A stretch of DNA of 64,000 bases from an uncultured Candidatus Saccharibacteria bacterium (GTDB taxonomy: Bacteria > Patescibacteriota > Minisyncoccia > Phycocordibacterales > UBA2100). The translations under genes were made by a program, and so were the position numbers. The notes below the pieces were generated by a model, which was not told the origin of the DNA, did not search any database, and saw only the letters and a program-made list of their open reading frames with translations. Shown here one piece after another: positions 13,179 to 62,836 of the stretch. Every line of letters begins with the position of its first letter. Position 1 is the stretch's first letter. The stretch covers positions 7,100 to 71,099 of the forward strand of contig CAZYLZ010000003.1 of NCBI GenBank assembly GCA_964648335.1, given 5' to 3'.

Positions 13179-13180
13179 TT

Positions 13181-20136: not shown

Positions 20137-20139
20137 AAC

Positions 20140-21811: not shown

Positions 21812-22043
21812 AAAAATTTGTGGGTAAGGTGTGGATAAGGTGTGTGTCGGGACTGCCTTTATACACTCCTTGTGTGGACAAAAAGCCAAGTGACGGCATT
21901 ATACACACAGCTATCCTTCTTTTCCGTGAGTTGTTAGTCCGGTAGTCCCCAGTTGAAAAGGTAATAAAACCGAGTAAATAAGCCAAAAAAAGACGTTATC
22001 CACTTATCCCCGCGCTTAATAGTATTAGTAGTAGTATTTATAC
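21812..22043. promoter_or_regulatory. candidate oriC: DnaA-box cluster plus AT-rich unwinding element in the dnaA-dnaN spacer
   Basis: Perfect TGTGGATAA (reverse of TTATCCACA) at 21830-21838; one-mismatch boxes at 21819-21827, 21873-21881, 21996-22004; AT-rich AGTATTAGTAGTAGTATTTATAC just before dnaN. Confidence 0.6.
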
Positions 22044-42816: not shown

Positions 42817-42838
42817 ATCGACGCATGGGCGAGGCTTG

Positions 42839-43885: not shown

Positions 43886-43909
43886 GTTCTCGACAGTATA
43901 CCATCGTGC

Positions 43910-45794: not shown

Positions 45795-45893
45795 GCTGCA
45801 ATCATACAATAGAGAGGGCAGAAGTTCATGGGTGTGGGGGCAATAACACAGATTAGTTGCTTTTTTGGGGTTTTTAGGTACTATAGCCCCCAT

Positions 45894-46160
45894 ATGGCTA
45901 TCACATCGTCTGCAAAGAAGGCACAGCGCGCATCTCTTAAGAAGCGCGTCTTCAACGTGCGCCGCAAAGACACCATGCGCGACGCCTTCAAGGACTTCTC
46001 TAAGCTTGTCGCAGCCAAGAAGGTTAAGGAGGCAGGTGCTATGGTCTCGACGGTCTACCAAGCGGTAGACAAGGCTGCAAAGCGCGGAATCATCAAGGCA
46101 AACGCCGCATCGCGCCGGAAAGCTCGCGTTGCACGCATGCTCGCTGGAATCTCGAAATAA
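45894..46160 (+). CDS. rpsT: 30S ribosomal protein S20
   Basis: MAITSSAKKAQRASLKKRVFNVRRK... classic S20 N-terminus; 88 aa from the internal Met. Confidence 0.85.
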   Translation: MAITSSAKKAQRASLKKRVFNVRRKDTMRDAFKDFSKLVAAKKVKEAGAMVSTVYQAVDKAAKRGIIKANAASRRKARVARMLAGISK

Positions 46161-46269
46161 CGGCTCAAAACAATCACAAAACCGCGCTTTCTGGCGCGGT
46201 TTTGTGTCGGGGTATCGGTTTTTTGGCTTCGGTCGTTTGTTATTGTAGACGCCTCTGCTTGCCGCCATT

Positions 46270-46515
46270 AGGGTGGCCGCGGCTCGCGCCGTCGCGCTGC
46301 GCCCTGCGACCATCAGGGTCGCGAGCACATTTTTGTGGCCACCGTAATTTGCTACTGCAAATTCGGCCGGCCCCGGCTCGGCACGCCTGCCTCCGCCGAG
46401 CACAAATCTGCGCTCACTCGATTTGTGTGGCTACCCATAATTTTCTGGTGAAAATTTGGTCAGCCCCGCCTCGGCAGGCCTTTGGCTAGCACAAACTCCA
46501 TGTATTCGTTTGTGC
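46270..46515. repeat. three tandem degenerate two-hairpin repeat units (about 70-90 nt), last one abutting the tRNA-Arg 3' end
   Basis: Each unit: inverted repeat GCTCGNG...CNCGAGC then AGCACAAA-loop-TTTGTG hairpin (CACAAATctgcgctcactcgATTTGTG; CACAAACtccatgtattcGTTTGTG); spacers carry perfect small palindromes AATTTGCtactGCAAATT and AATTTTCtggtGAAAATT. Confidence 0.5.
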
Positions 46516-46584: not shown

Positions 46585-46693
46585 GTCGGTCGTACTGTAG
46601 CATGTTTTTCGAGAATATCTATCTTTCTGGGACAGGCTGGTGCAATCCACTGTGCAAAGCGTTGGAAAAGGTGGGGGAGTGCCGCATGATATG

Positions 46694-49423
46694 GCTATGC
46701 ATCGATCTCGCGGCTCTGCGTCGTTGTTAGTAAATCTCTTCTCATTCGCCATAGTCGCTGGATTGTCACTCGGTGCCAGCGCCTATAGCCACGGCAAGGT
46801 CGCGCTCGGCATCGACGTGCCACAACGCTCGCAGATGACTGCAGCGGCAGATGCGGCATCGTCGCGCGATGGCGACAATGGTCGAGGGGCCAGTGGAGCA
46901 CCAATCCCGAGCGGTGAAGAGATAGGAAAAGCTAGCGATTGTCCTGCAGGAACGACGCAAAACGTCTCGGCTGCCACCGGCGGAGATAATCCTGGTGAGG
47001 TCGCGATAGTGCAAGCGCCCGGCGCCGATCTTAACTCGTGCGTTGTTTCGTGGGATTCGCCCGATGGGAAAAAAATATTTGTCGCCGGAGCTTCGTCGTA
47101 CGCGGGAGCTATCAGTGCCTGTGGTGGCGCTGCGGCAACCACATGTGTTACACAAAAGATGGAAAGTCAGTTTCCAAACGGCGCCGCAAACGGAACTGCC
47201 GAAACGAAGGTAAAAGAGCTCGCTGGCCTTAAGGGATATGCTGCGCCGTCGGATGTTTTGAATGATGCGTTTGGTGTAGGTGGCTCCGAGGCGAAGGCTG
47301 CAGTGGAGAAAGAAGTCGAGAACAATCTTAAAGCGCTCGAGGCATATACCAATAAGACGATTAGCGCGACCGACGACAAAGACAAAGAAAGGCTTGGGTT
47401 AGGCACGGCCAACCTCGAGACGCTTAAAGAGTCGGTCGGCCGCATCCCAGCGGGGGACAGTCCGTTCAAAACCGACCTGCAGAATGAGCGATTAAATACA
47501 ACACCTGCGGGCGAGACTAAAACCAATCCGATAGGTAATACGTTCGGATCTCATCGTGCTGATGAACAGACTTCGATGGAAGCTCTCGATCGTTACAATT
47601 CAAAAAAGGAACTCGCGGGTACGTTCGGTGCTAAAGAGGCCGCTCTACAGATTGCGCGCAACGCATACGATGCCGGATTGCGAAACGATCTCACTAACGA
47701 CGAGATCTCTGCGCTTGCGAGGGATAAGGCAAAGGCAGAAAGCGAATATGAAGCCGCACTTAAGGCTAAGAATGAGCTAGATGCATCGAATAAAGAAAAT
47801 GCGTTGGCTAAGGCAGGTCCGTGCACGGCAGGTTGGCCGGCATGTGCTATTCGCGAAAACATCGTGAACCCCATACGGCAATTTATTGGGTGGGCACCTA
47901 TCCAAGAAACGCCCGGTGCTGGCGGCGTAAAAACTGAAACCGCAGTTGCGGGCGCTGCGACAACAAATACGGTTCCAACTACGCGCGAAACTGTCTCGAA
48001 TTCCGTAAACCCTGCCGATGCCTTTAAGGGCAACGAAAAACTTATCGCTGATTCCGATGAGCGACTCCATGCGGCGGTCGAAGGATATACGAAGGATGTA
48101 CCCACGGTGAGTGATCGCGACCACGATAAGGCATATGTCGAGAGTTGGGAGGCGCGCAAGGCGTATATCAACAACCTCGAAAAAACGCTTGCCGACCCCA
48201 AGACTCAGGAAGCGGGCAGCGCAGAAATTGGAAGAAAGCTCGATGCCGCACGAGCAGATTTAAAAGAGTTCGAAGGTCAGTTCAAGAAGGGGGCAGGGAG
48301 CCCTGGGGGCGCAGAAGAACTCCAGGCAATGAAGGATAGTCTGGGTGAACAAGCAGCTGCTGATAAAAAATCAGCAGACGATGCAGAGGCAGCGCGAAAG
48401 CGCGCCGAGCAAGAGGCTGCAGACCGCAGTCGCGTCGGGGGTGGAAATGGTGGCGGAGGGAGCGGAGGCGGGGGTGCAAATAAAAGTATCGCAGATGTGT
48501 TGAGTGGACTCATGGGTGGCGGGCAGAATTCGGCAGAGTGCGAGGCCGCAAAGTCGCAGTGCAGCGCAAATAGAAGTACGGCTGCGTGCCAAAAGGTTGC
48601 GCAGTGCCAGTCGCAAAGCAGCAACCCACTCTCGCAGCTCGGACAGATGCTCGGTAAAGCATTGGGCGGCGGTGGAAGTAGCGGGAGTGCCGCACAACCC
48701 GGTAGTGTTGCAGCGAATGCGGCGTGCAATGCGTATCCAGGAACGACGCTTACGAACGGGCAGTGTGCGTGCCAGCAGAGCGGCTACTCGTTCTACCAGG
48801 CAGGGACGACGCTTAACGGCGCGCCCGTACCGACATCGGGGTGTTACGCACCATCGGTTGCAGCTGGAACCAATCCTGGCGGGCAGACGCCTGTTGCCAC
48901 CATCTCGTGCGCAACAAATGCCGCAGATGTCGGTATGACGATTCCAGTCTCGTGGTCGTGCCAGAATTCGGTCACAGCGCGCGTCGACGGATTTACTCCC
49001 GCAGCACAAGAATTGGCACAGCTCTCGGGCTCGAGCCAAGTTACTGTCGCCAAACCAGCAAGCGGATCAAGCGTCGACTACACGGTCACGTGCATTAATC
49101 AGGGACAGACCGACGTAAAAAAGTGCACGGTCGCGATAGGTCAGCCTGGTCTTGCAATTGTTGCCATTCCCGACCGGCCCGAGGTAGGTAAGACGTCAAT
49201 CATCGGATGGTACTCGACCGGCATGAGCTCGTGCAGTATCAAGGGAGGAAGGATGAAGGGAGGTACCGGATCTCCAATCGACGAATTTACCAAAGAGGGG
49301 ACGAGCGGGTCAATAACCTTGCCACCCATAGAAGACGGCGATGTTTTCGAGGCAGGGCTTGCCTGCGTAAGTACGAGCGGACAGACAACCACCAAAGGAA
49401 TCGAGATAAGGCAGAAACAATAG
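46694..49423 (+). CDS. large secreted coiled-coil/Gly-rich protein with C-terminal tandem Ig-like domains (family-related)
   Basis: Signal/TM (LLVNLFSFAIVAGLSLGASA); long Lys/Glu/Ala coiled-coil region; Gly-rich (GGGNGGGGSGGGG; LGKALGGGGSSGS); C-terminal ...TIPVSWSCQNS...VTCINQG... β-sandwich repeats resembling C-termini of the 36782, 38123 and 50452 proteins. Start could be 46640. Confidence 0.6.
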   Translation, partial: AMHRSRGSASLLVNLFSFAIVAGLSLGASAYSHGKVALGIDVPQRSQMTAAADAASSRDGDNGRGASGAPIPSGEEIGKASDCPAGTTQNVSAATGGDNPGEVAIVQAPGADLNSCVVSWDSPDGKKIFVAGASSYAGAISACGGAAATTCVTQKMESQFPNGAANGTAETKVKELAGLKGYAAPSDVLNDAFGVGGSEAKAAVEKEVENNLKALEAYTNKTISATDDKDKERLGLGTANLETLKESVGRIPAGDSPFKTDLQNERLNTTPAGETKTNPIGNTFGSHRADEQTSMEALDRYNSKKELAGTFGAKEAALQIARNAYDAGLRNDLTNDEISALARDKAKAESEYEAALKAKNELDASNKENALAKAGPCTAGWPACAIRENIVNPIRQFIGWAPIQETPGAGGVKTETAVAGAATTNTVPTTRETVSNSVNPADAFKGNEKLIADSDERLHAAVEGYTKDVPTVSDRDHDKAYVESWEARKAYINNLEKTLADPKTQEAGSAEIGRKLDAARADLKEFEGQFKKGAGSPGGAEELQAMKDSLGEQAAADKKSADDAEAARKRAEQEAADRSRVGGGNGGGGSGGGGANKSIADVLSGLMGGGQNSAECEAAKSQCSANRSTAACQKVAQCQSQSSNPLSQLGQMLGKALGGGGSSGSAAQPGSVAANAACNAYPGTTLTNGQCACQQSGYSFYQAGTTLNGAPVPTSGCYAPSVAAGTNPGGQTPVATISCATNAADVGMTIPVSWSCQNSVTARVDGFTPAAQELAQLSGSSQVTVAKPASGSSVDYTVTCINQGQTDVKKCTVAIGQPGLAIVAIPDRPEVGKTSIIGWYSTGMSSCSIKGGRMKGGTGSPIDEFTKEGTSGSITLPPIEDGDVFEAGLACVSTSGQTTTKGIEIRQKQ

Positions 49424-49957: not shown

Positions 49958-50134
49958 TGTAAGCGACGGCAGGAAAACCCTGCCGTCTTTGTTTTAAGCC
50001 AAAAAAGAGGCGTCATCTTTTTCATGAACCTTTCACCACAAGGGAATATGCTGAGAACTGGACAAAAGTACGATAAGACGGTATAATGGGACTCAGTTAA
50101 TTTCGACGACGGCAAACAAAAAAGGAGATTTGCC

Positions 50135-50341
50135 ATGCTCACTAAAATCTGTGCGGCATTTGCTCTGGTTGCCGTCGCTACGGCGGCTCCCGCAGCAACA
50201 GCGCCGACCCGGCTCGTTGGACACATTCCCGTGTGTTCCGGCTCGCCCAAGGTCTGTGTGCAGACCGCAGTCAACTTCAAGGTCGTTCCGACTCCTGTAG
50301 CGCAAGTCCTTCGGGATTTTGCGGTCATGGATGAGGAGTAG
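50135..50341 (+). CDS. small secreted peptide (68 aa) upstream of the giant gene
   Basis: Strong AAGGAGA Shine-Dalgarno 6 nt upstream of the ATG; signal peptide MLTKICAAFALVAVATAAPAATAP; own terminator downstream. Confidence 0.5.
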   Translation: MLTKICAAFALVAVATAAPAATAPTRLVGHIPVCSGSPKVCVQTAVNFKVVPTPVAQVLRDFAVMDEE

Positions 50342-50347: not shown

Positions 50348-50374
50348 AAAGCGCGCACCCCGGTGCGCGCTTTT
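50348..50374 (+). terminator. rho-independent terminator
   Basis: GCGCGCAC-cccg-GTGCGCGC hairpin followed by TTTTGTT. Confidence 0.65.
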
Positions 50375-50451: not shown

Positions 50452-53400
50452 ATGCGCCGCATACCGCAGGTCTTTTCTGCTTACGTCTTTATCATCGCCT
50501 GTGCGACTGTGATCACGGCGGTATCACTCTTGCCGCTTAGACTTGGTGCTGAGGTCGGGACTGCAAACTGCGCCGCGGGCTATGTAGAGGTGAATGGTGC
50601 CTGCAAGCCAGCGCAAGAGAACGAAAATGTAGGACAGACCAATGGTACGGATTCAAAAACAACTACTTCAAAAACGAACACTACAGATACTACTCATTGT
50701 GATCTCACTACATTTCAAGCTGCAGTAGGCGGATCACAGTCATGTTACGAACCCGGTGTGATCGGCGGAAAAAGCGGTCAGTGCAGTCCGCCGCCAGGAG
50801 CAGCTACCTGCGCCTCGCTAAAAGAGTCCGCCATCAACGCGATGGGGGGAGGTGGAGTAGGTGGCAGTGTACCCACAAAGCCCGAAGATATAATCTTCGG
50901 CCCCGAAACGCCGGTGCAGTCATCGGGGCAGGTCATTCCCAACTCGGGCCAGCAGGCTCCTCTCGAAGTAGTAAATACCAAGGTGGTGAATACTCCGAGC
51001 GCGCTCGACCGACTTGAGTCCATGCTCGGCCTCGGCGAAAACGGATCGGGAGACAAGCCGACGACGCTCTTGCCGGGACCGGCCTCAGCAAACTTGTCCG
51101 ACTACACCAAATTTACTCCGTACGACAACGGTGCTCCGCAGTTCGACATGGCATCGGTGCGCGCTGCGCGTGCGGGCGATGCGTTTTACGACGGCGTCAT
51201 GTCGAACCTGTTCAATAATCTTGATTCTCTACCGATGCAGTTTACGCCGCCGAACGTTGGCGACGTTTTAAGTGGAAGAATATTCGGACCACCGAGCACG
51301 TTTGCTCCTGTCGGTACCGCAGGGTTCACGCCGACGCCGGGGACAGGTATGGCACCGGGGCAGAATCTTGTTTCGCGGTCGGTTCCAACCAGTAATGTTC
51401 CAAATCCGCTCCAAAGTGCATACGACCGACTGACCAATCCGTTTTCTTCCTCTCCGCTTGCAGGGACAGCAGGCCTGCCAGGTGCACTTTTGGCGCAGAT
51501 GTCGCCGTCTGGTCTTGCTAGCCTTACTCCGTCGCAACAGGCTACTTTGCAAGAGCAACTCGCGCGGTATCAAGAACAGCAGCCACAGAACACCGTCTTC
51601 ATGACGACCGACGCGGCAGGGCGACCGGTGCTTGCTCCGACTCCTGATTCTTTGACGCAGCCGCTTACGAGCGACCCATTTGCAGGAGAGAGTGCTGCGC
51701 TTGCGCGACTCGCCAACGGCGACAACCTCCTCGATCCAAACACCCCTGTGATTCCCGGGACGACACCGAGTGATTCGCTCAAGGGTATCGTCGAGGTGAG
51801 TGCAGCAACCCCATTGACCCCTGACGGCGCGTCGCTTGTGTCGACCGAAGACGTGCGTGATGCATTCCAACGAGGAAATTTCGGTGAGGCAATTGCAAAG
51901 GCAGGAGAGGGGATGATCGAGTCTACACAGCGTCTCTTGGCTTCGATAGGGCAGGGTTCTATAAAACTAATAGGTTTGGGAGCCGTAGAAAATACCATGC
52001 AGTCCGTTTCCGATGCTCTGGGGTTTTCGGGCACGGGCGGCGTCGACACACTTGCGGGCAGTGGGCAGGACGATATCCCGACAGGGGACATCGTCTATAC
52101 CGATGCAAATAACAACGACCAAGGGACGCCGGGTGCACCGTCGGGAATTCCGGCACAGGCAACACCTGCATTGAGTCAATCCGAGAAAAATGCGCTTGCC
52201 GAGTACCAACAGGCACAGACCGCGGCGAACGATGTTGCCAACAGTACCGACGAACAAGTAAAAGCAGATGCGGCCGTCGCAAAGGCACAGAGTGCTCTCG
52301 AAAAATCGGGCATCGATCCGGAGACCGGTCAGAAGGTGGTCGAGACGAAACCGTTTAGTCCCGAGAATAATCCAGAACTCGGTGGGTCTAAGGAGCGTGC
52401 TGATGCGCTTAAGGACACAAATAAGACGACGACCGTCACGTATTGTGATCCTCCAAATTCCGATTGTACGAGGTTCAGGAATGTTGAATACCGGACTGAG
52501 GCGGAGGCGAAAGTTGCCGAGCAGGCTAACAAAACCGCAGAGTCGCTCGACCGTGACGTAAAGAGCATACAAGCAGAACAAAAAGCGCTCGCCGATGCAC
52601 GTACGTGGGATCAAAAGGCGCGTGATCTTTTGCCCGACAGCTTGCGACCGGCGCCGAGCAAAGATTACCTTATCTGCAATGACGCAGACTGCACTAATCC
52701 AAAACAGGCTACCTACAACGAGTACAAAACCGCGACCGATCAGCAAATCGAGAGCCTTAAGGCAGCAGAGGCAGTAGAGAAATCAAAAGCCGCCTATATA
52801 GAGAATGGACTGCCATCGTCTGACAAGGTGGCCGAGAAGCTCTCGGGCGCGACTCTTGATAACCAGCCGCAGCGGACCTACTACGATATGTTCGGTAATG
52901 AATATCGCAATGCCGAGGCGGCGAAGGGTGCCGATACTATTGCGCTCAATAACGAGTCACGTGCAGCGGCAATCAGCGGCACCGAAAAATCAGTGAGTGA
53001 CATGGAAGCTCAAAAGGCGAAATATGATGCCGACGTCCAGGCGCAGATCGATGCGGGGAAGATCAAGCAGGCGGACCCCTTTGTGGTCACCGTCAACCAG
53101 AATGGGAAGGAGGTCAAAATGTCGTTCGAAGAGTACAGGGCGCAGGCTGCAGCTAGCGTCGACGCGATGAAGCAGGAAATCGCCGATTCGAGTAAGGTGG
53201 CGCAAGATCTTAAACAGACCTTTGCACCACGTCCGGGCGACGGACCCTCGGTGCCACCAATAAGCGAAGAGGCAAAGATGCGAGACTTGGCCGAGCGGAA
53301 ACTAGAAGAGACCGCGGTGCTTAAAGCGGTCGAGGCTAAGACGAACCAAGACAAGGAGTTCGCTGCAATCGCCAAGCTTACCGATGCGCAGCGAAGAGAC

Positions 53401-56400
53401 CAGGCTCCGCAGATAGAGGCGCGTCTTGCACAGGCTGCCAAGGATGTGAATGCATACACGACGAAGGCACAAGAGTTGGCTGGTGTCGTGCCGCAGACGC
53501 AAGAGACGAAGGATGCTGTCGCCGCTGTGGAGCGTGTGCTTACCCAGGGTACGACACAGCTCGAGCGCAACATTGCCGGTCTCAAAGACTGGGGTAAGGA
53601 CATGACAGGACCTGTCGGGTTCATGGTGAGGTCTATCGGCGGAAGTCTCGGAAACGCGACAGAGCTGGTTACGAGTTATCTTCCGAATCAGCCCGCGCAG
53701 GTGGTGATAGGAAAGATGTTCGATACGAATCCCGAATTCACCAAGTTCATAACGCCGGTCAAGATCGCAGGCGAGCTCGTTAACGTGGTGAGCACGCCGT
53801 TGTTGCTCTCGTCACCAAGCCGTGCGATGGTCGAGAGTGCTCTTGCCTCGCAGCTTGAGGCGCGTACGGCCGCGCTCACATCCTCGCCGCTCATCTCTGC
53901 TCCATCGACCGCTGCCGCTACCGCCGACAGTGCGCTTGCGCGCGCTGCCGCTGTCCGTGCCGAGATTATGGATGCCGGTATACAGGCGCGCTTTGGGGCT
54001 CCAGTGGGTACGACCCCGGTAGTTGTGGAGTCGCGTCTGGCTCCTATTGCGTCGGTAGACGCGGCAGGAAATGGAGTGGTGCGCCTCGAGCCTGTCGTTA
54101 CCGCATCGTCGCGTGCCGAAGGTGCTGTTGTTGCGGAAGGACTCCCGGGTGCACGAGCAGGAGTGGGAGAGGTGGTCGGCGGCGGTATCGCTCGCGAGAT
54201 TACGGCAGCAGATATTGCAGCCAAAGCACCGGTTGCCGATTCGGCGTTCGGGCGCGTAGCACAGACCATAAAAGAAGCGGGTGGCCCTGACTTGCTCGGT
54301 CCGGCATGGAATAAGGCCGTGGCACCCGTAGAGACTGTAGTTTCGGGCGTCGAAGCAGCAGGTGCTTCGGCAGCACGACGCATCGATAACGCGGTTGCCG
54401 ATGCATACAAATTTATGAACGGTTCGTATCCGCCGGGCAGCTTTCGTGCATTTGAGGCGCAATTTCCGGCAGCAGAGAGGGCGGGGGTGAGTGCCGCCGT
54501 CGACGCCAATGCGGCGCTCGGCAGGACGCTCTCTGGCGAGGCAAAATCTGCCATCAGCGGTTATGAATCGGCTGCAGCGCAGGCAGCTGCCGAGCGTGCA
54601 CGTATGGAAGCAGCGACTGCCGCCGGACGTACGGCGACGGCTCGTGCCGAGGTGCAAGACGCACTAGCGGCTGCACGTGCCAGGCTCGAGCAGGCAGGAT
54701 TAGAGCCGGTGGCGGCAGATAGTCTCGCGGTGAGAACAAGACCGCAGGTCGTGCCGACGGTAGTGGAGTCAGGTGCTACCGTCGCCGAACTTCAAAAAGG
54801 AGTTGCGCTCGATGCAGCTGCTACAGCCAAAGCAGTACCTGTCGAGAATGTGTCAAAAGCCAATGCTGCGCTTGCCGATACGGTTGCAGCTGCTGACAAA
54901 GGCGCTGCCGCCCGGGCGATCAAGAATTACGAAAGTGCTCAGGCTGATTTTGCAAAACTTGCGCGCGAGAATCCGAGCTCGAGCGCGCTCGATGCATCGG
55001 CTGCACGCATGCGCTCTGCTGCGCAAGACCTCGCCAAGTACGACCTCGAGCCCGCGACAGCCGGTTCGAAGGTGCTACAGAAGAGTATCGTTCCACAAAA
55101 GGACATCGTGACGCTCACACAGATAGAGAAGGATGTGAGTCAGGCGGTAAGCAAAGGTGACTACGCGAAGGCCTACGATGCGCTTCAGAAAGAGCGGCCG
55201 GCGCTCGCGATGGGAGACAACTCGCAGGCGTACCTCTTGTCGCCGTCGGGCCGCGCCCGCATCGAGCTTGAGAACAGATTATTTAATTACACAAATGAGG
55301 TAGCGCAAGGGATACGGATGGAGAATGCGCTTGCAAAAGCGGAACTGGTCAATGTTGAAGCGGCAGCAAAGGCACAGCCAACGAGTTTCTCGACGAATAT
55401 TTCAAACGCGATAGCCGCTTGTTCCAAAGGTGGCTCGTGCGACCCGCGCATCCTGCTCACCAAGTCGCTCCCAAGTCCCGCACGGCTCTTGAACGGCGCA
55501 GTCACGGCAAGCATCGCGTTTCAGGCGCTGGCACCAACTGTTCAGGTGGCGCGCATGGTCGAAACTGGCGCTGCACGAGTAGCTGTAGTCTCGACTAAGG
55601 CGGCAAGTACGCCATACCTATATGGAAAGCTCGCCCCGGTCGTTTCGACAGACGCAGCGCGTGTCGCGTCGATAAAATCGGCAGTGACACCTGCACAGCT
55701 GGCGCAGTCGTATCGGATTCTCGCGTCGGTTCCCGAGGTAAAGGCGGCAGTAGCGTCACCCTCGGTACCGGCGGCGCAGGCAGCGGCAAGTCAGGCGACC
55801 GCAGTAGGCGACTACGCAACAAAGGTCGGATCTGCACTTAAGAGTGCCGGACTCGAGGCGACTCCCTTGGCGCAGACGATGGCACAGGTAGCGCGCGATC
55901 CGGCGCTTGCTCTGGCCGAGACTGCTCCGGTGCGCGCAGCACTTGCCGATGCAACTGCTCAGGCGCGAGCTGCGGCGATTGCTGCTTCGGCGGCAGGGAC
56001 TGCGAGTGTTGCGCCAGTTCCCGCGACACCTGATTTCAGGGGGCTCAACGCAACGGCTCCGGTGATAGCCGAGGTTCTTGCACAACAGGCGTTTCTTTCA
56101 GACCGGGGTCCGACTCTCTTCGAGAAACAACAACCAACAATACTCGGCTCGGCAGCAGAATTTATTAATCAAGTGGTCGGCATCACGCCTGCTGTTGCGC
56201 AGGGCCGCGACATTTGTGCAGGAAACAACTGCGGCGGGCATAAGTATGTCGGACAAGCGATGGAAAAAATTCGGTCAGTGCTTGGGTATGCACCAGGGGA
56301 AATGGGGGTACGTATAGGGAATGGCGGTGAGCGCTACGCCACATATGCAAATCTCGGCGAATGGCTTGCAGCCGACATAATCAAGCGTCAGGCATATGTG

Positions 56401-59400
56401 ACGCAGCTCGGAAAGGATGTGCTTTTGGGGAACGATACGAATAGGAGTCAAGATGCGGCGTGGGCTGTTCCTGATCGTGATCATGCGCAACCAGTCGCGG
56501 TTTTGCGACAGCAGCGTTTGAATGCGTTCGCGAAATCGGGCCTTACGACAGAAGAGGCGACGACGCCATTTACCGCAAATGACATAGATAGGATCGAGAA
56601 GATCTCTATCGCGACGGCCTGTGCTGAATATTCTAAGTGCAGTCCCGACTTTATTCCGCAAGCAGAGCGTGACCGCGCACGGCAGATATTGGCCCGAGCA
56701 GGTATTATTTCGCCGCAACAGACTGTTTCTGCTCCGTTAAGTGTGGCCGAGAAGCAAGTTGCGCAGAACGCGATCACCAATGCACAGGCTGCGGGTATGC
56801 GCATCCCAACGGCAGTGGCACAGGCACTCACGCCGTGGGCATTCCAAGAGCGACGCGCGGTCCTTGAGGGGCAGCGCATCATAAGTGAGGTCGCGCAGAA
56901 TCCGGCCCTTACCAATCCTGCTGCGCATGCGCAATACACCGCTCTCGCTCAAAGCGGCGGAGCAATACAGATTCCCGGTGCCGCCGGACAGACTATCTAT
57001 CTTCCAGGTTCAGAATTCTCGTCGGCGGTCCCGTCTCGTCAGTACCTGGTGATGCATCACCAGGCAGGTATGAACGCACTTAATCGCGCGACCCAGTATC
57101 ACACGGGTGCGGTAAATGTCGGCACTCGCTATTGGATTAAACAGAATGGGGACATAGTGGTGGCCCGAAGGGACGGGACTATCGAGGCGCATATCGGACA
57201 GATTGGCCCAAGCGATCTCGATGGGAGAAAGATTGTTTCAGCGAATAATGCAAACGCGACCGGTATTGAGTTCGAGGGATACGGTTATAACACGGCCGAG
57301 CAGATGCAGAGTGGTGTCGCACTTGCTCTTTTCTTGCAGACGCGTCATAGCATTTCCCCGGACCGCGTCATACCGCATCTTAAAGACACGGATCGCCAAG
57401 AGGGGGTGGCGATGACACAGGTGATGCGGACCATCGCATTCGTGCCACACAAAGCAGAAGAGCAGTTTGCAAAAATCGCCCAAGTCTTGCAAAAGGGAAT
57501 CCAAGGTATCGTGCAGGCAGCAGGGCAGAATGCTGCGACCTTGGCAGCAAAGATACAAGGCATCCAAAAGACCCTAAGGACTGTCTCGACTCCGTTTTCC
57601 GATTCCGCCGTAAGTAAGACGGCCCTTGCCCAGCCCATGTTTGCTACTCGAAGCGGTCCGCAATTGGGTGCTGTGCCGGCTGCCGAGGCAGGCGCAGTGC
57701 GAGCCGCACCCGCAGCGGCAGGCGCCGCTGCGGTCGTACCGTCTGCACTGGCGGTGACCGAAGCGCTTGCTAAGGCTTCGGCGGCAAGTGACGCGTACAA
57801 GCAGGCAGCAACGGGCTTTGTCCGTGCAGTCGAGAGTGGCGATCAGTCGCTCCTCAACTCTATCAATGCGCTCTCGAAGGCGTCAGACACCGCATACACC
57901 GAAGCATTTGAGGCGGCGCGGACGTACCTTGTCGAAGCAGGCGCTACAGACGCAGTAGTCGCTGCCAAAGCAAAGGCACTCAATGAAAGAGCGGTGTCGG
58001 CCAAAGCCAAGCTCGCATCTGACACAGCTTCCCTTAAGCAGAAAAATGCGCAATTGGCAGAGTATGTCGGCGCCTCGGACGCTCATGCCGCAGCGATGCG
58101 CGACATCATAAGCGAGGCGAAGGACCTCGTTGCGAAATCGCCAAGCTCGGGCATATCGCAAGTGCGTGTCACGACGGTACCAGTCTTGCCTGTCACCGAA
58201 AAGATTTCACCTCCGTCGAGTCTCAAGTTTCGTACTGGATCGAATATAAATCCAGAACAAGCCAGAGCATATCTCGCGACGGACGCTTCGATGATTCTCG
58301 GGGGAGATCCGAGTAGCGAAGGGTGGGATGCGCTCGCGAAAGCGGTCAAAGATTCAGGTGGCAGATTGCATATGTACGACTTCGGTCCTGGAGGTCCGAC
58401 TAACGGCGTTATGACCGTCGCAGAGAGCTCCGAGCAAGCAGCTAAGGCGCGCGAGCTTGGTCTTGCGCGTGATCAATGGCTCGCTGGTACATGGAACGAA
58501 GGAAAACCAACTGGGTGGCTCAAATCTTCGACCGATAGGATTGCCAAGTATCAGCCGTACTCGGTCGAATTCGACAACCTCGACAGGCTTCCGTGGCTGC
58601 GAAATGACGGCGCTGCCACCGTTTCGTTCTTCAAAGAATATCAAAAGTGGGCAGATGCGAACGGTGTCGCGACAAGGGTCATACTCAAGAACCTGGATCA
58701 AGTACAGTGGCAGGCGCTGGCGGGATCGATACGCTCTGGCGAACTTCGCGGTTCGACGTTCGCTAACATCGCGATAAACGAGGGTACTCTCGTCGCGGCT
58801 CCCGTCGCAAAAGCAATCGGAATAACGGAGGTGCGCACGACCGACAGCGGAAACTACCCGACGCCGAACGATTTGAGGTCGGACCCAGCTGCCAATGCGA
58901 TCTACGCTGCGTACCCGACCGCTGAGTCATCAGTAGGTGTGCGCACCGCGGGTGTGGGCAAGGTAGACGGCTTCGATCTCGCGCAAGCGACAAAGGCAGG
59001 GGTCAAACTTTCACTCGACCCACATGTTTTATCGACAGCTTCCGAGGAGGTTCCGTTCAAGATCGTGTATACCGATCCCGCTAGCAAACTCACTGCAGAC
59101 CTCACGATGGCCGACTATGCGCGCCTAACGCCGTCGGGCAGGAAAGAGGTGCAGATGGTAGTGACCGACGGGAATGGCAAAGCGCAAGCGCTTTCTCCTG
59201 CTGCGTTCGACGAATACATGAGCGCCAAGTTCAGTGTAGGACAGTCTGGCAACGCCGTGGCACAGCTCAAGAGTGACATTGAAAAGCTGACTGGAGTGAA
59301 GGCTACCGACATGAAGCCGCTTACGGGCAAAAATGCAACTACCGTGCACTCGAGCGAAGCAGGTAAGTACTCGGCGGTGGCAACCTATCGAAGTGGGGAT

Positions 59401-61845
59401 TCGATCGTGCGGGTCGGCACGATGATGCCTGATACCGCTGCGATCGTGAAAGCATTCGACGAATGCAAGAACGCAGGCGTGTGCGCCGCAAATGCGAAGC
59501 TCACGTTTGATATCAAGAGCAAGAATAGCTGGCGCAGTACTTCGGCAGATAGCAAACCGGTAGTGTTCGAGATAGAGGCAAGGGAGGTGCAGTCGGCCGT
59601 CGCTGCGAAGCCCGCCGCCCAATCTCCAGGGAATGGATCAGGAGCGCAATCGGCCCGGTTCGTTCAAGGCAACCACACTATCAATCCGTACATCGGGGCA
59701 TCAATGAAGGTTGCTGCTGAACACTGGGGTCCCGAATACGAATTCAGGGTTATCAGCGGTCAGGCGGGGCGGTCGTCAGGTACCAAGAACCACCCGGCAA
59801 ACCGGGCGGTAGACATCACTATCTATAAAAACGGTGTCGCCCTCAAGAATATCCGATCACCAGAGACGTTTGCTGTGTATCGCGACTTCATGCAAGACGT
59901 AAAGCACTTCCAAGATCAGCTGTTCCCTGAGCTGAGGGGTCAAGGACGGTGGGGCGGCTACTTTGTGAGCGGGGTAGGGCAAGACCTGATGCATTACGAT
60001 CTCGATCCTTCAAACGTTATGGCGGCAGGAAGCTGGGAAGGTGGCCTTCGACCGCAATACGCGTTTTATGGAATCCCGGGTGATGTCGGGAAAGGCATGG
60101 GGAATTTGGCGACGTATAAACCGGCAGGTACGAGTGTGGGTGGGCCAAGTGTTGCAGCAGCTCCTGCAAAACCGACCATCACGATCCAAAAGTCGGTTTC
60201 GATAAAGTTGGCAACGCCAGCAATCGCTGACCGTGGTATCGCTGATGCTGGTAGGTTACTCGGTAAAGAGATTTTTAATTATAAAGTTACCGGATCTGAG
60301 TCGACTCATGAGGTAAGGGTATACGCCAGCAAGAACAATGGAGTCTTGGCGGGGTCCCAATCACGGGGAAAAGGAGCGACCCCGACGAAGGCGACGGTAA
60401 GTATCGCCGATATCAACAGTTTGTCGGGGCTTACCGACTATCTCTCTCGTGCATATGCGCGTGGCGTCGTCGCGCCGTCGGTACCAGCTTTGCCGAGGGA
60501 CGGCACTATACGCGTCGCCGCGAACGCGGAATTCCCGAGTGTAGCTAGCGTCGTCAAAGAAGGTCAGGAGATTGGCGGTGGGGCACCAGTGCCACGAGTC
60601 CCGATACCGACGTTCTTGTCGCGTGCTGTTCCAGGAGCCAAAGTAGCAGCACCACGTGGAGGGACCTTGGCCAACGTCATCATGACCGCGCTCGGACTCG
60701 GATTGTTCCCGGTTATCAATCCTGGTCGCGTCTTTGGTCCCGATGATGCAGGTTCGTCAGCAGTGCCTTCGGTGGATACGCTCGACGACGAAGCCGAGCT
60801 CGAGCGTCTCTTGAACGAAGACAAGCCTACGATGACCAAACAGTTCACGCCGACTCCGGTTCAAGCGCCAACACCGGTCAAGCTTCATCTTGATCCAGAA
60901 AAGGGTTGGATGGTGATGACTGAGCAGACAGTGACGCAGACTCCGCCTCCGGGAACGTCACCGGGAGGGGGTGGAAACGGCGGAGGTGGAGGTGGCGCGC
61001 AGCAGAGCCCAATCCAAAAAGCGATGAGTGCGCTCCAGGACATGATGAAGAAAATGACAGATGCTGCAAAGAAAGCGGCCGGTGGAGGTGCCGCTTCGGG
61101 CGCGGCACCGGCGGCGCCGACGAATCCTCCAACCTCTGCAAATACGTCGCCGACTATACGCTGCACTCCTTCGTCAGTTGCATCCGCGACGACCAAGATA
61201 ACCGTATCGTGGACTTGTAGCGGCAGCACATCGTCTGTCGGAACCGGCTTCAGCACCACAGGTAAGGTCTCGGGAGTTACGACGGCCACCATTGCCGCGA
61301 CATCATCTCCTAAAGTGGATCTCACAATCTCGTGTCTCACCAACGCCGTGGTGACCGGTACTGCATCGTGTCCTATTGATGTCATCCATCCATCGGTGGC
61401 CGGGGCTGCCAATCCGTCGACGGTCGAATCAGGCAAAGGGTCTCAAGTCGTCTGGACATCGGTACAGACGACCGGCTGTTCGGTCTACGCGCCGCCGAGC
61501 GTAATGCTTGTTACGGGCGGATCATCGGGGCGCGTCGATACACCGGCCTTGGTACATACCAGTATTTATAAGGTCGTGTGCGGTACCAAGGCAGGAACAG
61601 CCGTAACCGCACCGGTGACCATAGTGGTAGCAGGGGATGATAGCGCGCCCCTTGAAGCGGTCGTTCCTGCAACCGCACAGACGAAAAGCATGACCACATC
61701 CGGTACCTCTGCGTCGGCTTCTGGAGTATCGGGGACAGCAGGAACTGTTGGTGCGACTATAGTAAACGGACAACCGGTGCAGCTGTGCAACCCCGGTGCG
61801 GGGATGACGGCGTTTGTGCACTGTATATCAGGGGGAAGATTTTGA
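50452..61845 (+). CDS. giant secreted multidomain protein (3,797 aa) with amidase_2-like and M15-like peptidoglycan-hydrolase modules and C-terminal Ig-like tandem domains
   Basis: Uninterrupted 11.4-kb ORF; signal peptide; Ala/Gln-rich low-complexity core; YLVMHHQAG...YHTG...YWIKQNGDIVVARRDGTIEAHIGQ...NATGIEFEG (amidase_2/PGRP-like, about 57040-57330); ISGQAGRSSGTKNHPANRAVDI...DLMHYDLD (M15_3-like, about 59690-60010); Gly-rich GGGGNGGGGGG; C-terminal ...ITVSWTCSG...ISCLTN... β-sandwich repeats. Confidence 0.8.
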   Translation: MRRIPQVFSAYVFIIACATVITAVSLLPLRLGAEVGTANCAAGYVEVNGACKPAQENENVGQTNGTDSKTTTSKTNTTDTTHCDLTTFQAAVGGSQSCYEPGVIGGKSGQCSPPPGAATCASLKESAINAMGGGGVGGSVPTKPEDIIFGPETPVQSSGQVIPNSGQQAPLEVVNTKVVNTPSALDRLESMLGLGENGSGDKPTTLLPGPASANLSDYTKFTPYDNGAPQFDMASVRAARAGDAFYDGVMSNLFNNLDSLPMQFTPPNVGDVLSGRIFGPPSTFAPVGTAGFTPTPGTGMAPGQNLVSRSVPTSNVPNPLQSAYDRLTNPFSSSPLAGTAGLPGALLAQMSPSGLASLTPSQQATLQEQLARYQEQQPQNTVFMTTDAAGRPVLAPTPDSLTQPLTSDPFAGESAALARLANGDNLLDPNTPVIPGTTPSDSLKGIVEVSAATPLTPDGASLVSTEDVRDAFQRGNFGEAIAKAGEGMIESTQRLLASIGQGSIKLIGLGAVENTMQSVSDALGFSGTGGVDTLAGSGQDDIPTGDIVYTDANNNDQGTPGAPSGIPAQATPALSQSEKNALAEYQQAQTAANDVANSTDEQVKADAAVAKAQSALEKSGIDPETGQKVVETKPFSPENNPELGGSKERADALKDTNKTTTVTYCDPPNSDCTRFRNVEYRTEAEAKVAEQANKTAESLDRDVKSIQAEQKALADARTWDQKARDLLPDSLRPAPSKDYLICNDADCTNPKQATYNEYKTATDQQIESLKAAEAVEKSKAAYIENGLPSSDKVAEKLSGATLDNQPQRTYYDMFGNEYRNAEAAKGADTIALNNESRAAAISGTEKSVSDMEAQKAKYDADVQAQIDAGKIKQADPFVVTVNQNGKEVKMSFEEYRAQAAASVDAMKQEIADSSKVAQDLKQTFAPRPGDGPSVPPISEEAKMRDLAERKLEETAVLKAVEAKTNQDKEFAAIAKLTDAQRRDQAPQIEARLAQAAKDVNAYTTKAQELAGVVPQTQETKDAVAAVERVLTQGTTQLERNIAGLKDWGKDMTGPVGFMVRSIGGSLGNATELVTSYLPNQPAQVVIGKMFDTNPEFTKFITPVKIAGELVNVVSTPLLLSSPSRAMVESALASQLEARTAALTSSPLISAPSTAAATADSALARAAAVRAEIMDAGIQARFGAPVGTTPVVVESRLAPIASVDAAGNGVVRLEPVVTASSRAEGAVVAEGLPGARAGVGEVVGGGIAREITAADIAAKAPVADSAFGRVAQTIKEAGGPDLLGPAWNKAVAPVETVVSGVEAAGASAARRIDNAVADAYKFMNGSYPPGSFRAFEAQFPAAERAGVSAAVDANAALGRTLSGEAKSAISGYESAAAQAAAERARMEAATAAGRTATARAEVQDALAAARARLEQAGLEPVAADSLAVRTRPQVVPTVVESGATVAELQKGVALDAAATAKAVPVENVSKANAALADTVAAADKGAAARAIKNYESAQADFAKLARENPSSSALDASAARMRSAAQDLAKYDLEPATAGSKVLQKSIVPQKDIVTLTQIEKDVSQAVSKGDYAKAYDALQKERPALAMGDNSQAYLLSPSGRARIELENRLFNYTNEVAQGIRMENALAKAELVNVEAAAKAQPTSFSTNISNAIAACSKGGSCDPRILLTKSLPSPARLLNGAVTASIAFQALAPTVQVARMVETGAARVAVVSTKAASTPYLYGKLAPVVSTDAARVASIKSAVTPAQLAQSYRILASVPEVKAAVASPSVPAAQAAASQATAVGDYATKVGSALKSAGLEATPLAQTMAQVARDPALALAETAPVRAALADATAQARAAAIAASAAGTASVAPVPATPDFRGLNATAPVIAEVLAQQAFLSDRGPTLFEKQQPTILGSAAEFINQVVGITPAVAQGRDICAGNNCGGHKYVGQAMEKIRSVLGYAPGEMGVRIGNGGERYATYANLGEWLAADIIKRQAYVTQLGKDVLLGNDTNRSQDAAWAVPDRDHAQPVAVLRQQRLNAFAKSGLTTEEATTPFTANDIDRIEKISIATACAEYSKCSPDFIPQAERDRARQILARAGIISPQQTVSAPLSVAEKQVAQNAITNAQAAGMRIPTAVAQALTPWAFQERRAVLEGQRIISEVAQNPALTNPAAHAQYTALAQSGGAIQIPGAAGQTIYLPGSEFSSAVPSRQYLVMHHQAGMNALNRATQYHTGAVNVGTRYWIKQNGDIVVARRDGTIEAHIGQIGPSDLDGRKIVSANNANATGIEFEGYGYNTAEQMQSGVALALFLQTRHSISPDRVIPHLKDTDRQEGVAMTQVMRTIAFVPHKAEEQFAKIAQVLQKGIQGIVQAAGQNAATLAAKIQGIQKTLRTVSTPFSDSAVSKTALAQPMFATRSGPQLGAVPAAEAGAVRAAPAAAGAAAVVPSALAVTEALAKASAASDAYKQAATGFVRAVESGDQSLLNSINALSKASDTAYTEAFEAARTYLVEAGATDAVVAAKAKALNERAVSAKAKLASDTASLKQKNAQLAEYVGASDAHAAAMRDIISEAKDLVAKSPSSGISQVRVTTVPVLPVTEKISPPSSLKFRTGSNINPEQARAYLATDASMILGGDPSSEGWDALAKAVKDSGGRLHMYDFGPGGPTNGVMTVAESSEQAAKARELGLARDQWLAGTWNEGKPTGWLKSSTDRIAKYQPYSVEFDNLDRLPWLRNDGAATVSFFKEYQKWADANGVATRVILKNLDQVQWQALAGSIRSGELRGSTFANIAINEGTLVAAPVAKAIGITEVRTTDSGNYPTPNDLRSDPAANAIYAAYPTAESSVGVRTAGVGKVDGFDLAQATKAGVKLSLDPHVLSTASEEVPFKIVYTDPASKLTADLTMADYARLTPSGRKEVQMVVTDGNGKAQALSPAAFDEYMSAKFSVGQSGNAVAQLKSDIEKLTGVKATDMKPLTGKNATTVHSSEAGKYSAVATYRSGDSIVRVGTMMPDTAAIVKAFDECKNAGVCAANAKLTFDIKSKNSWRSTSADSKPVVFEIEAREVQSAVAAKPAAQSPGNGSGAQSARFVQGNHTINPYIGASMKVAAEHWGPEYEFRVISGQAGRSSGTKNHPANRAVDITIYKNGVALKNIRSPETFAVYRDFMQDVKHFQDQLFPELRGQGRWGGYFVSGVGQDLMHYDLDPSNVMAAGSWEGGLRPQYAFYGIPGDVGKGMGNLATYKPAGTSVGGPSVAAAPAKPTITIQKSVSIKLATPAIADRGIADAGRLLGKEIFNYKVTGSESTHEVRVYASKNNGVLAGSQSRGKGATPTKATVSIADINSLSGLTDYLSRAYARGVVAPSVPALPRDGTIRVAANAEFPSVASVVKEGQEIGGGAPVPRVPIPTFLSRAVPGAKVAAPRGGTLANVIMTALGLGLFPVINPGRVFGPDDAGSSAVPSVDTLDDEAELERLLNEDKPTMTKQFTPTPVQAPTPVKLHLDPEKGWMVMTEQTVTQTPPPGTSPGGGGNGGGGGGAQQSPIQKAMSALQDMMKKMTDAAKKAAGGGAASGAAPAAPTNPPTSANTSPTIRCTPSSVASATTKITVSWTCSGSTSSVGTGFSTTGKVSGVTTATIAATSSPKVDLTISCLTNAVVTGTASCPIDVIHPSVAGAANPSTVESGKGSQVVWTSVQTTGCSVYAPPSVMLVTGGSSGRVDTPALVHTSIYKVVCGTKAGTAVTAPVTIVVAGDDSAPLEAVVPATAQTKSMTTSGTSASASGVSGTAGTVGATIVNGQPVQLCNPGAGMTAFVHCISGGRF

Positions 61846-61851: not shown

Positions 61852-61879
61852 AAAAAACGCCCCCGAAGGGGCATTTTTT
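61852..61879. terminator. bidirectional rho-independent terminator
   Basis: AAAAAAC-GCCCC-cgaa-GGGGC-ATTTTTT between the convergent giant gene and the 61886..62338 minus-strand gene. Confidence 0.75.
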
Positions 61880-61885: not shown

Positions 61886-62338
61886 TCAAAAGCCAAAGAA
61901 CTCCATTATCTTGTGCGAGAGCGGCTCGACTATGAGGTTCTCGGGAACATGGTCAGAAAGGAAGGTGCGGACGCGGTCAGCATCTTCGTCTGCAAGCGGG
62001 AGCACAAGGTGTGCATGCATAGGACGGTGCGTGTTGATGAGGAGCAGGTGCTCTTCATCGTTTATCCAGAATGCATCGATGATGTCGTACGAGAAGAACA
62101 TGTCGTCGGCTTTGATACCGCGATTCGAGATCTCGAAGCTGACTTCGCGAGCAGGGCGCATCGACATGATGGTAAGGGTCCCTGCCGCAACCAAGATTAA
62201 GATCGCGAAAAGTATGTCGGAAAGAAGGATTGCGGTGAGCGCGCTCGATACCGCGACAATACCGAGCACCCAGAACCAATCTCCCTCTTTGGGCTCGTGC
62301 TTATGCTCGAGCGCTCGCCATGCGATGGTTTCAGCCAT
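61886..62338 (-). CDS. small membrane hypothetical protein (150 aa)
   Basis: Two adjacent TM helices (WFWVLGIVAVSSALTAILL / ILFAILILVAAGTLTIM); no known motif. Confidence 0.45.
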   Translation of the reverse strand: MAETIAWRALEHKHEPKEGDWFWVLGIVAVSSALTAILLSDILFAILILVAAGTLTIMSMRPAREVSFEISNRGIKADDMFFSYDIIDAFWINDEEHLLLINTHRPMHAHLVLPLADEDADRVRTFLSDHVPENLIVEPLSHKIMEFFGF

Positions 62339-62422: not shown

Positions 62423-62836
62423 TTACGGACCAACGGTATTTCCGCATCCCGATGAAAATCCTTTTATAGTGTTGGTCTCAAGACAGAAGGAGAGAGTATA
62501 GGTGCTGCCAGTTGTCGATTGATAGGTGTACGAGTATTTGGGCGAAGGATCGCGCGGGGTCTTGGTCATGGACCCAGTGCTTACGAGCGTGGTCGAAAGG
62601 ATATCGGTGCCATTGATGGTGACCGCAGTCGCGGCCGTTGGGTATGATCCTGCGGCGGTCGCGTGGAGCGCGAGCGCCTTGCGTATCTGATCAATATCGT
62701 CGATTCGCCGCGCATCTCGCGCTTTGGTTCGTGCTAAGCCAAGTCCTGCCATGATGAGTCCCGATAAGAGCGCGATGATAGCAAGAACGACGAGCAGTTC
62801 TATGAGCGTAAAGCCCCGATCGGATTTTGTATGCAT
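62423..62836 (-). CDS. type IV pilin / pseudopilin (prepilin-type N-terminal cleavage/methylation domain)
   Basis: Class III signal: MHTKSDRG-FTLIELLVVLAIIALLSGLI with G(-1) and E(+5), hydrophobic N-terminal helix; 137 aa. Confidence 0.8.
   Translation of the reverse strand: MHTKSDRGFTLIELLVVLAIIALLSGLIMAGLGLARTKARDARRIDDIDQIRKALALHATAAGSYPTAATAVTINGTDILSTTLVSTGSMTKTPRDPSPKYSYTYQSTTGSTYTLSFCLETNTIKGFSSGCGNTVGP

Follow-up and report, generated by a model that had tools for sequence, protein, structure and literature searches.

A 3,797-residue protein with three lytic-type enzyme modules in a Parcubacteria-group bacterium: a candidate breacher of host envelopes

We describe a gene of 11.4 kb in a 64,000-nucleotide stretch of contig CAZYLZ010000003.1 (the window, below), which by its gene relationships is chromosomal DNA of a small-genome bacterium of the Parcubacteria group (Patescibacteria). 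The gene encodes a single giant protein with three enzyme modules, namely an Amidase_2 module, a TIM barrel resembling the glycosidases of families GH114, GH166 and GH191, and a divergent peptidase of the LAS/M15 fold, in which metal-binding or acidic residues are conserved. It belongs to a modular family, has relatives of its peptidase module in phages, and lies in a position that is kept in another Parcubacteria genome. On balance we favour the view that the gene product is a surface-displayed multi-enzyme envelope breacher that acts on another cell, presumably the host.

The protein would be exported by the Sec route and shown on the cell surface, with the three modules carried by a long Ala-rich spacer. 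The Amidase_2 module would cut the MurNAc-L-Ala bond of peptidoglycan, the TIM barrel, as kin of GH114/GH166/GH191 glycosidases, would attack an alpha-linked (N-acetyl)galactosamine exopolysaccharide, and the zinc peptidase would cut a stem-peptide bond. A C-terminal cassette of Gly-rich linker, two beta-rich domains and Cys-loop tail would anchor or present the protein at the surface, and, where the two cells touch, the extracellular matrix and wall of the presumed host would be opened locally. Phage tail and tape-measure lysins with the same peptidase domain would perform the same task from outside. The features of the gene are:

50351-50368, terminator-like site upstream of the giant gene, the second of two
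50452..61845 (+), giant open reading frame (ORF) of 3,797 amino acids plus stop, ATG start, one frame
50452..50550 (+), residues 1-33, predicted N-terminal signal peptide or signal anchor (hydropathy scan)
50695..50862 (+), residues 82-137, Cys-rich N-terminal segment ending ...INAMGGGG
52252..56898 (+), residues ~601-2149, Ala-rich region with helix-favouring residues and paired-Cys loops, presumed spacer or stalk
57040..57381 (+), residues 2197-2310, Amidase_2 (N-acetylmuramoyl-L-alanine amidase, PF01510) module, in a conserved block of residues ~2160-2410
58201..58881 (+), residues ~2584-2810, TIM-barrel module resembling GH114/GH166/GH191 glycosidases
59659..60171 (+), residues ~3070-3240, divergent zinc-peptidase module of the LAS/M15 fold
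60661..60717 (+), residues 3404-3422, moderately hydrophobic segment GTLANVIMTALGLGLFPVI, mean Kyte-Doolittle 1.75
60964..61089 (+), residues 3505-3546, poly-Gly plus amphipathic helix motif GGGGNGGGGGG...IQKAMSALQDMMKKM...GGG
61153..61641 (+), residues ~3568-3646 and ~3647-3730, two tandem Cys-bearing beta-rich domains, plausibly Ig-like
61759..61842 (+), C-terminal Cys-loop tail NGQPVQLCNPGAGMTAFVHCISGGRF (C3779, C3791)
61859..61872 (+), terminator-like hairpin GCCCCCGAAGGGGC plus T-run, starting 14 nt past the stop codon of the giant gene

An earlier inspection of this DNA without database searches (the sequence-only reading) had described one continuous ORF over about 18% of the window, and this is what we find. 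The 3,797 codons take up 17.8% of it, the natural logarithm of the probability of meeting no stop over that length is -148 at the base composition of the ORF, and the remaining two forward frames have 142 and 129 stops over the same length. An NCBI protein (P0160, 3,797 aa, from a contig of 87,345 bp) is identical to the giant protein, and for independent support we looked to fragments of JGI metagenome assemblies. These match residues 1-440 with 98.6% identity, residues 488-763 with 86% (a diverged strain, with the differences in frame), residues 1810-3362 with 99.4% (P0155) and residues 3085-3797 with 99-100%. P0155 has all three enzyme modules in a single frame, and that part of the gene is therefore no assembly chimera. 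The genome is carried by the samples DRR685535, SRR35242010, SRR12487045 and JGI 3300045372. With terminator-like sites on both sides the gene looks monocistronic, a transcription unit of its own.

With regard to the first enzyme module, the amidase block is as the sequence-only reading had predicted it, and at the coordinates it gave. The match to PF01510 is above the cut-off of 26 both on the whole protein (36.1 bits, E 9.6e-9) and on the segment alone (40.7 bits, E 3.6e-10; profile positions 6-120 of 131). We aligned the block with the sequences of T7 lysozyme and E. coli AmpD. H2202 then falls on H17 of T7 lysozyme and H34 of AmpD, E2273 in GIEFEG on E116 in GIELEG of AmpD, and H2309 on H122 and H154 respectively. 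By gapless spacing from H2309, in a part where the alignment is gapped, R2315 and E2317 would stand at the positions of K128 and C130 of T7 lysozyme. There are two relatives of the amidase block (P0005 and P0013, 43-51% identical), and both keep Glu2317 and the His, Glu and His of the catalytic positions. A profile of the three sequences gave a still weak match in PDB, to AmiD at E 0.27.

The sequence-only reading counted two hydrolase modules; there are three enzyme-like modules, the one overlooked being the TIM barrel at residues 2584-2810. An exhaustive search of 1.84 billion representatives with residues 2180-3260 as query gave 508 matches, of which 150 were listed, and among those listed there are 15 homologues of the TIM-barrel domain. 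Residues E2706, D2708, K2746, N2747 and E2777 are invariant in their alignment. The Pfam GH114 family (PF03537) is matched by 4 of 16 members (best E 4.3e-5); the giant protein itself gives no match to it and is below every Pfam threshold in this region, and the sequence identity to GH114/GH166/GH191 enzymes is only 13-16%. The AlphaFold2 model is a beta/alpha barrel (pLDDT 81.6), and a Foldseek search against PDB did not discriminate among TIM barrels. We consider, with moderate confidence, that the module is a probable glycosidase of the GH114/166/191 group. The enzymes of these families cleave alpha-1,4-linked (N-acetyl)galactosamine exopolysaccharides, for example Pel and galactosaminogalactan.

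The third module had been assigned to Peptidase_M15_3 on the motif ISGQAGRSSGTKNHPANRAVDI. The motif is real and a second module of wall-peptidase type stands, but not the family: the giant protein gives no match to PF08291 at E up to 10, and only 1 of 30 homologues of the module matches it (E 0.046). The nearest Pfam model is Peptidase_M15_4 (PF13539), for which the giant protein scores 13.8-14.2 bits, below the cut-off of 25. As 12 of the 30 homologues match this model (best E 1.3e-5) while the query stays below the cut-off, the relationship is a distant one and not membership. Residues H3114, D3121, D3178, H3181 and D3183 are invariant in the alignment of 30 sequences, and H3114-x6-D3121 with D3178-L-M-H3181 constitutes the metal and catalytic signature of the LAS/M15 superfamily. 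Searches of PDB with the single sequence gave E values of only about 0.5-2 for the amidase and M15 block. The profile of the 30 sequences has as its best PDB matches Ply500, an M15C protein, hedgehog proteins and LysB4, and aligns the first motif to the SNHxxGxAVD of Ply500 and hedgehog. The AlphaFold model is likewise of the superfamily fold (hedgehog/DD-peptidase), its best structural matches being phage L-Ala-D-Glu peptidases and then VanX. The module is therefore no member of PF08291 but belongs to a remote and so far uncatalogued branch of the superfamily.

Among the 150 matches listed from the exhaustive search 113 cover residues ~3070-3240; a word-filtered homologue search with the M15-like domain alone gave 3 matches. 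Several of the relatives are in phage or virus-like contigs. In an IMG/VR locus (L010, 2715-8678) a 511-aa ORF ends in the domain and comes immediately after the gene for a 1,432-aa Peptidase_M23 protein; genes for tail tube, baseplate hub and DNA end protector are on this contig as well. In a second locus (L011, 7941-10484) the domain is fused to PG_binding_1. The M15-like ORFs of L009, L010 and L011 have no M15-family Pfam match at E 0.001 or better. The Rhizobium phages L338C and P11VFA have the domain in their tail modules, as part of ORFs whose annotation is tail tape measure protein (38% identity, E 5e-8; gp035 of L338C is locus L014, 5536-7098). There is also a stand-alone 365-aa chromosomal gene, beside glyQS and among housekeeping genes, in the metagenome-assembled genome (MAG) of an alphaproteobacterium of the Hyphomicrobiaceae. 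As judged from these contexts, the recurring associations of the family are with peptidoglycan and, in phages, with attack on the wall from outside.

The N-terminus of the giant protein is MRR followed by a hydrophobic stretch of 19 residues (11-29, mean Kyte-Doolittle 2.27). This is what one would expect of a Sec signal peptide or of a signal anchor, with possible cleavage after RLGA, and the same start is called in an independent fragment (P0156). As a prediction, then, the signal peptide of a probably secreted giant protein proposed earlier is upheld. Residues 82-131 of the Cys-rich segment are 40% identical (E 6e-6) to residues 91-138 of P0005, a relative of 3,397 aa, and are followed by poly-Gly at residues 132-135. 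The core had been called Ala/Gln-rich; it is Ala-rich (18-27% over residues ~1200-2000 and 2400-2600) but not Gln-rich (only ~6-9%). The Ala-rich residues ~600-2150 and 2330-2580 have six Cys pairs of the CxxxxC type, those within residues ~601-2149 being 665/672, 742/747, 1657/1663, 1922/1927 and 2057/2063, and the paired Cys loops together with the signal-like N-terminus suggest an extracellular location. The Ala-rich regions have no match in Pfam, NCBIfam, PHROGs or PDB. The NCBIfam scan of the giant protein gave no match, nor did a PHROG scan of six of its segments (residues 1650-2420 and 2600-3797) and of two upstream ORFs, and a PDB sequence search with residues 1860-2180 and 2811-3069 gave nothing meaningful. 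Between relatives the Ala-rich spacer cannot be aligned, whereas the modules are 40-56% identical, and we infer that the Ala-rich regions are a fast-evolving spacer or stalk.

The C-terminal cassette comprises residues ~3495-3797: an amphipathic helix with poly-Gly runs on either side, then the two beta-rich domains and last the Cys-loop tail. Its probable function is to anchor or display the protein on the cell surface. The poly-Gly runs are at residues 3505-3515, and a poly-Gly/helix motif of the same type is present in ORFs 36782-38119, 38123-39853 and 46640-49423 of the window, in the orthologue L001 described below and in P0002. In an alignment of 13 sequences (A5) C3571, W3587, C3589, C3628 and C3640 are invariant in the first beta-rich domain and W3668, C3676 and C3710 in the second; of the relatives aligned, none but the largest (L001, P0005 and P0013) keep the Cys-loop tail. 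The poly-Gly and the two conserved repeats of the sequence-only reading are thus there, but for its Ig-like fold, which is plausible from the sequences, we have weak profile matches: the 13-sequence profile matches IPT/Ig-like repeats (E 4.6e-4), alphavirus E1 and a Fab chain, and the domains have no Pfam family match. The hydrophobic segment 3404-3422, upstream of the cassette, is possibly a membrane or interaction segment. L001 has a hydrophobic segment at a similar position, and reading the C-terminal 330 residues of P0002-P0004 by eye revealed no evident counterpart.

At least four members of this uncatalogued cassette family, the giant protein and three paralogues, are present within the 64 kb:

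36782-38119 (+), paralogue of 445 aa, signal-like N-terminus, Gly runs, C-terminal cassette
38123-39853 (+), paralogue of 576 aa, signal-like N-terminus, Gly runs, C-terminal cassette
46640..49423 (+), paralogue of 927 aa, signal-like N-terminus, Ala/Lys/Glu-rich region, poly-Gly, two-domain cassette

The cassette matches the last of these by BLASTP (E 1e-9), and by tblastn ORF 38123-39853 at 2e-10 and ORF 36782-38119 at 0.019. The two-domain unit is also in many relatives elsewhere, including P0002-P0005, P0010, P0013, P0015 and P0023. A short motif recurs in the giant protein (residues 125-137 and 3505-3546), the three paralogues, L001 and P0002: an amphipathic helix ending in M, L or F and then GGG(G), with INAMGGGG, LLGKLMQGGGGGGGG and DKLRDMMGGG as examples. 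Such a motif might serve as a linker or as a signal for processing or sorting.

A further relative is in a Parcubacteria MAG (L001: CALRGX010000013.1, 170-13297), the only one among the GTDB representative genomes to have a close relative of the peptidase module. Its giant protein, of at least 4,375 aa, shares the module order of the window protein, with a GH114-like module (43% identical), then an M15-like one (45%) and last the cassette. It is followed, with order conserved, by homologues of the ORF 61886-62338 (-) (44% identical) and of CofD/YvcK (62%), and with the same downstream genes it is a positional orthologue. It has an RlpA-like DPBB_1 domain at residues 738-815; it has no detectable Amidase_2, and BLASTP gave no match to the amidase region of the window protein. 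The N-terminus as listed is not signal-like, and the true start may therefore be further upstream or in another frame. P0005 has the amidase and the cassette and no detectable GH114-like or M15-like module, and for another relative, of 1,988 aa, the name given at source is rare lipoprotein A (peptidoglycan hydrolase). The differences between relatives indicate that lytic modules are exchanged on a common scaffold, and as L001 has DPBB_1 besides its cassette and its GH114-like and M15-like modules, the common denominator of the family appears to be wall lysis.

The placement of the window in the Parcubacteria group is based on this orthologous locus and on PolA, whose named best matches are all Parcubacteria group, Patescibacteria, Kaiserbacteria, Pacebacteria or Taylorbacteria at ~60% identity; both agree with the small-genome bacterium of Patescibacteria type that had been suspected from sequence alone. 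The window has dnaA-dnaN, uvrD, polA, ruvA, a Mur ligase, a class A penicillin-binding protein (PBP), CofD/YvcK and two tRNAs, as well as genes for a type IV secretion system (T4SS) and type IV pili (T4P):

12630-13178, PrgI/VirB3-like, Patescibacteria-type T4SS cluster
13870-15789, VirB4, T4SS cluster
18067-18573, T4SS pilin, T4SS cluster
20459-23153, dnaA-dnaN
23419-25896, PBP1a (class A PBP)
29385-31079 (-), PilB, T4P assembly ATPase, 20 kb upstream of the giant gene
43910-45211, Mur ligase
61886-62338 (-), 150-aa protein with two predicted membrane helices, directly downstream of the giant gene
62423-62836 (-), type IV pilin-like ORF, N-terminal GFTLIELLVVLAIIALL, about 600 nt downstream of the giant gene

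In the T4SS region (7847-18573) the surrounding large ORFs are without Pfam matches, and one of the ORFs, 7847-9769, has a Big_6 Ig domain. The cumulative GC skew has its minimum just upstream of dnaA-dnaN (at about 18000-22000), consistent with a replication origin inside the window. A megablast of dnaA-dnaN against plasmids found no match, which is uninformative.

A weapon for host attachment or host lysis had been one suggestion of the sequence-only reading. We favour a host target for the three enzymes on five grounds: how large the spacer is, how rapidly it has diverged, the presence of an exopolysaccharide-type module, the phage tail and tape-measure relatives, and the obligate epibiotic lifestyle of the cultivated Patescibacteria. 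For these epibionts, giant surface proteins and secreted peptidoglycan hydrolases are proposed as tools for host interaction (PMC8080830, PMC12102498). Several observations weigh on the other side. The bacterium makes its own peptidoglycan, as PBP1a and the Mur ligase indicate, and the target wall could therefore be its own; the stand-alone Hyphomicrobiaceae gene means that the M15-like domain is not confined to attack systems; the presumed third zinc ligand of the amidase (H+8, placed by spacing) is Glu2317 and not Cys or Asp, which is atypical; the amidase is divergent, with PDB sequence matches at only E 0.2-1; and none of the independent assemblies examined covers residues 764-1809. The first two would fit a self-directed autolysin or wall-remodelling enzyme that separates daughter cells or makes gaps for T4P and T4SS, in a role like that of the VirB1-like hydrolases PrgK, TraG and CwlT of monoderm conjugation systems. 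The Patescibacteria-type T4SS (PrgI/VirB3, VirB4 and T4SS pilin) and the T4P genes (PilB and the pilin-like ORF) in the same window speak for it too. The T4SS of monoderms typically have wall hydrolases of several domains, and in Patescibacteria other enzymes may take the part of VirB1 (PMC12102498). However we regard a self-directed role, the main rival to our reading, as rather unlikely. The giant gene is ~32 kb from virB4 and bracketed by terminator-like sites, there is no SLT, CHAP or NlpC/P60 domain in the protein by Pfam, and a length of 3,797 aa with a spacer of ~2,000 residues and an exopolysaccharide-type glycosidase far exceeds the needs of local self-remodelling. Moreover the phage relatives of the peptidase are taken to act from outside the target cell, and the spacers of orthologues have diverged beyond recognition, for which an arms race would be a better fit than housekeeping. 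It had been said earlier that the domain combination does not look like a standard autolysin, and a giant protein with Amidase_2, GH114-like and M15-like modules bears this out.

The atypical third metal ligand could also be read in favour of an adhesin or surface fibril, in which the hydrolase-like modules bind the host envelope without cutting it, as do non-catalytic peptidoglycan recognition proteins and hedgehog-type LAS domains. The Ig-like look of the C-terminal repeats would suit such a protein, and PMC8080830 describes giant membrane or surface proteins with adhesion domains in the Candidate Phyla Radiation (CPR) predator Vampirococcus. We think this improbable, as the H, D and D-x-x-H positions are invariant across 30 diverse M15-like homologues, the amidase His, Glu and His are kept in two relatives, acidic residues are invariant in the TIM barrel, and orthologues have another lytic domain, DPBB_1, in place of the amidase. 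The stretch of residues 764-1809 bears on a different possibility, that of an assembly chimera or of foreign DNA in the form of a prophage tape-measure or tail-lysin gene; the M15-like domain is indeed found in phage tape-measure and tail proteins, and long helical proteins with embedded lysins are typical of tape measures. We give this very little credence. Independent assemblies reproduce residues 1-440, 488-763, 1810-3362 and 3085-3797, and there is no PHROG match in residues 1650-2420 and 2600-3797 or in the two upstream ORFs. The N-terminus is signal-like and the cassette is common to three clearly cellular paralogues. A phage tape measure or tail lysin is rejected on the neighbouring genes, which are RuvA, the Mur ligase, tRNAs and CofD/YvcK, with synteny kept in another Parcubacteria MAG, and not a phage tail module. 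A giant polymorphic toxin had been offered as another option from sequence alone, and this we reject for the Rhs, CDI and MafB types: the protein has no Rhs, haemagglutinin-repeat or toxin-family Pfam match, its C-terminus is the cassette common to non-toxin paralogues, and the downstream ORF, where an immunity gene might be sought, is a conserved protein with two transmembrane segments that is also beside CofD in L001.

The surface-displayed envelope breacher that we favour can be compared with several known systems. Phage virion hydrolases and tape-measure lysins (L338C gp035 and the T5, RB49, Ply500 and LysB4 peptidases) resemble it in having a lytic domain in a long, probably largely helical polypeptide and in their presumed action on the target wall from outside. 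In contrast to these the giant gene belongs to a cellular chromosome and does not have tail genes for neighbours; its product begins with a signal-like sequence, gave no PHROG match in the segments scanned, is 3-7 times longer and has two further enzyme modules and a cassette seen in no phage relative examined. The hydrolases of monoderm T4SS (PrgK of pCF10, TraG of pIP501, CwlT of ICEBs1) also have several peptidoglycan-cutting domains in one secreted or membrane-anchored protein, and here too a T4SS, of the Patescibacteria type, is in the same window (PMC12102498). The giant protein is roughly four or more times larger than hydrolases of the PrgK, TraG and CwlT type. In Southlakia epibionticum wall hydrolases adjoin virB4. 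The giant gene, however, is outside the T4SS cluster and 32 kb away, and has Amidase_2, GH114-like and M15-like modules where the T4SS enzymes have SLT, CHAP, LytM and NlpC/P60.

Staphylococcal Atl is an amidase plus glucosaminidase of about 1,250 aa with wall-binding repeats of the GW type; processing splits it into two enzymes, which serve self-directed cell separation. The likeness is in a secreted N-acetylmuramoyl-L-alanine amidase joined to a second wall hydrolase; in contrast to Atl we found no GW-type repeats in the giant protein, and size and module set differ. Enzymes of the GH114/GH166/GH191 group such as Ega3, the PelA hydrolase domain and TM1410 are stand-alone or in exopolysaccharide biosynthesis operons, whereas the GH114-like domain here is embedded between two peptidoglycan hydrolase modules. 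Vampirococcus lugosii is an ultrasmall host-dependent or predatory bacterium with very large predicted surface proteins proposed for host contact or envelope attack; PMC8080830 gives ten giant surface proteins of 1,392-4,163 aa, with adhesion-type domains and with the peptidoglycan hydrolases as separate small proteins. The present protein differs from such CPR giants in that the lytic modules are built into it, and in that it belongs to a modular family which is specific to Parcubacteria and has a distinct C-terminal cassette. In Omnitrophota giant genes have been implicated in cell-wall degradation (bioRxiv 10.1101/2023.11.21.568195); searching the text of that paper for amidase, M15, Patescibacteria and Parcubacteria gave no mention of them.

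Giant surface proteins and separate secreted peptidoglycan hydrolases of CPR bacteria (as covered in PMC8080830) and multi-domain hydrolases of T4SS (as covered in PMC12102498) are thus already known. In the literature searched we found no description of three lytic modules fused in a Parcubacteria giant protein, of the uncatalogued M15-like and GH114-like families or of the shared C-terminal cassette. It is possible, and we suggest it tentatively, that there is an undescribed Parcubacteria family of giant, Sec-exported, surface-tethered proteins with swappable lytic modules (Amidase_2 or RlpA-like, GH114-like and the new LAS/M15 family), a fast-evolving spacer and a lineage-specific cassette, which would be a cellular counterpart of phage tail lysins and open the host matrix and wall for pili or the T4SS. 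With regard to the route of ultrasmall Patescibacteria through the host envelope, the giant protein is a concrete and testable candidate, as it has three separable modules, named catalytic residues, an orthologue with a different lytic module and phage relatives presumed to act from outside. Three sequence families, the M15-like (at least 113 members among the 150 matches listed), the GH114-like TIM barrel and the C-terminal cassette, are below threshold in the Pfam library used; adding them would improve the annotation of CPR genomes, and the enzymes may be of interest as lysins.

Some further observations concern the genes upstream. The RuvA ORF (45219-46403, -, 394 aa, GTG start) has its RuvA domains only from residue 204, and either the true start is further downstream or there is an unusual N-terminal extension. 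The 348-aa ORF 42839-43885 (-) has a sub-threshold match to the Lamin Tail Domain (28.1 bits, cut-off 34.3) and overlaps the + strand ORFs 42825-43382 and 43488-44225. Between a 175-aa ORF and the giant gene there is an ORF of 68 aa (50135-50341, +) with a signal-like N-terminus and its own Shine-Dalgarno sequence (aaaggag), followed by the terminator-like hairpin at 50351-50368; a near-consensus promoter-like site at 50059-50087 (11/12 matches) is assigned to this small ORF.

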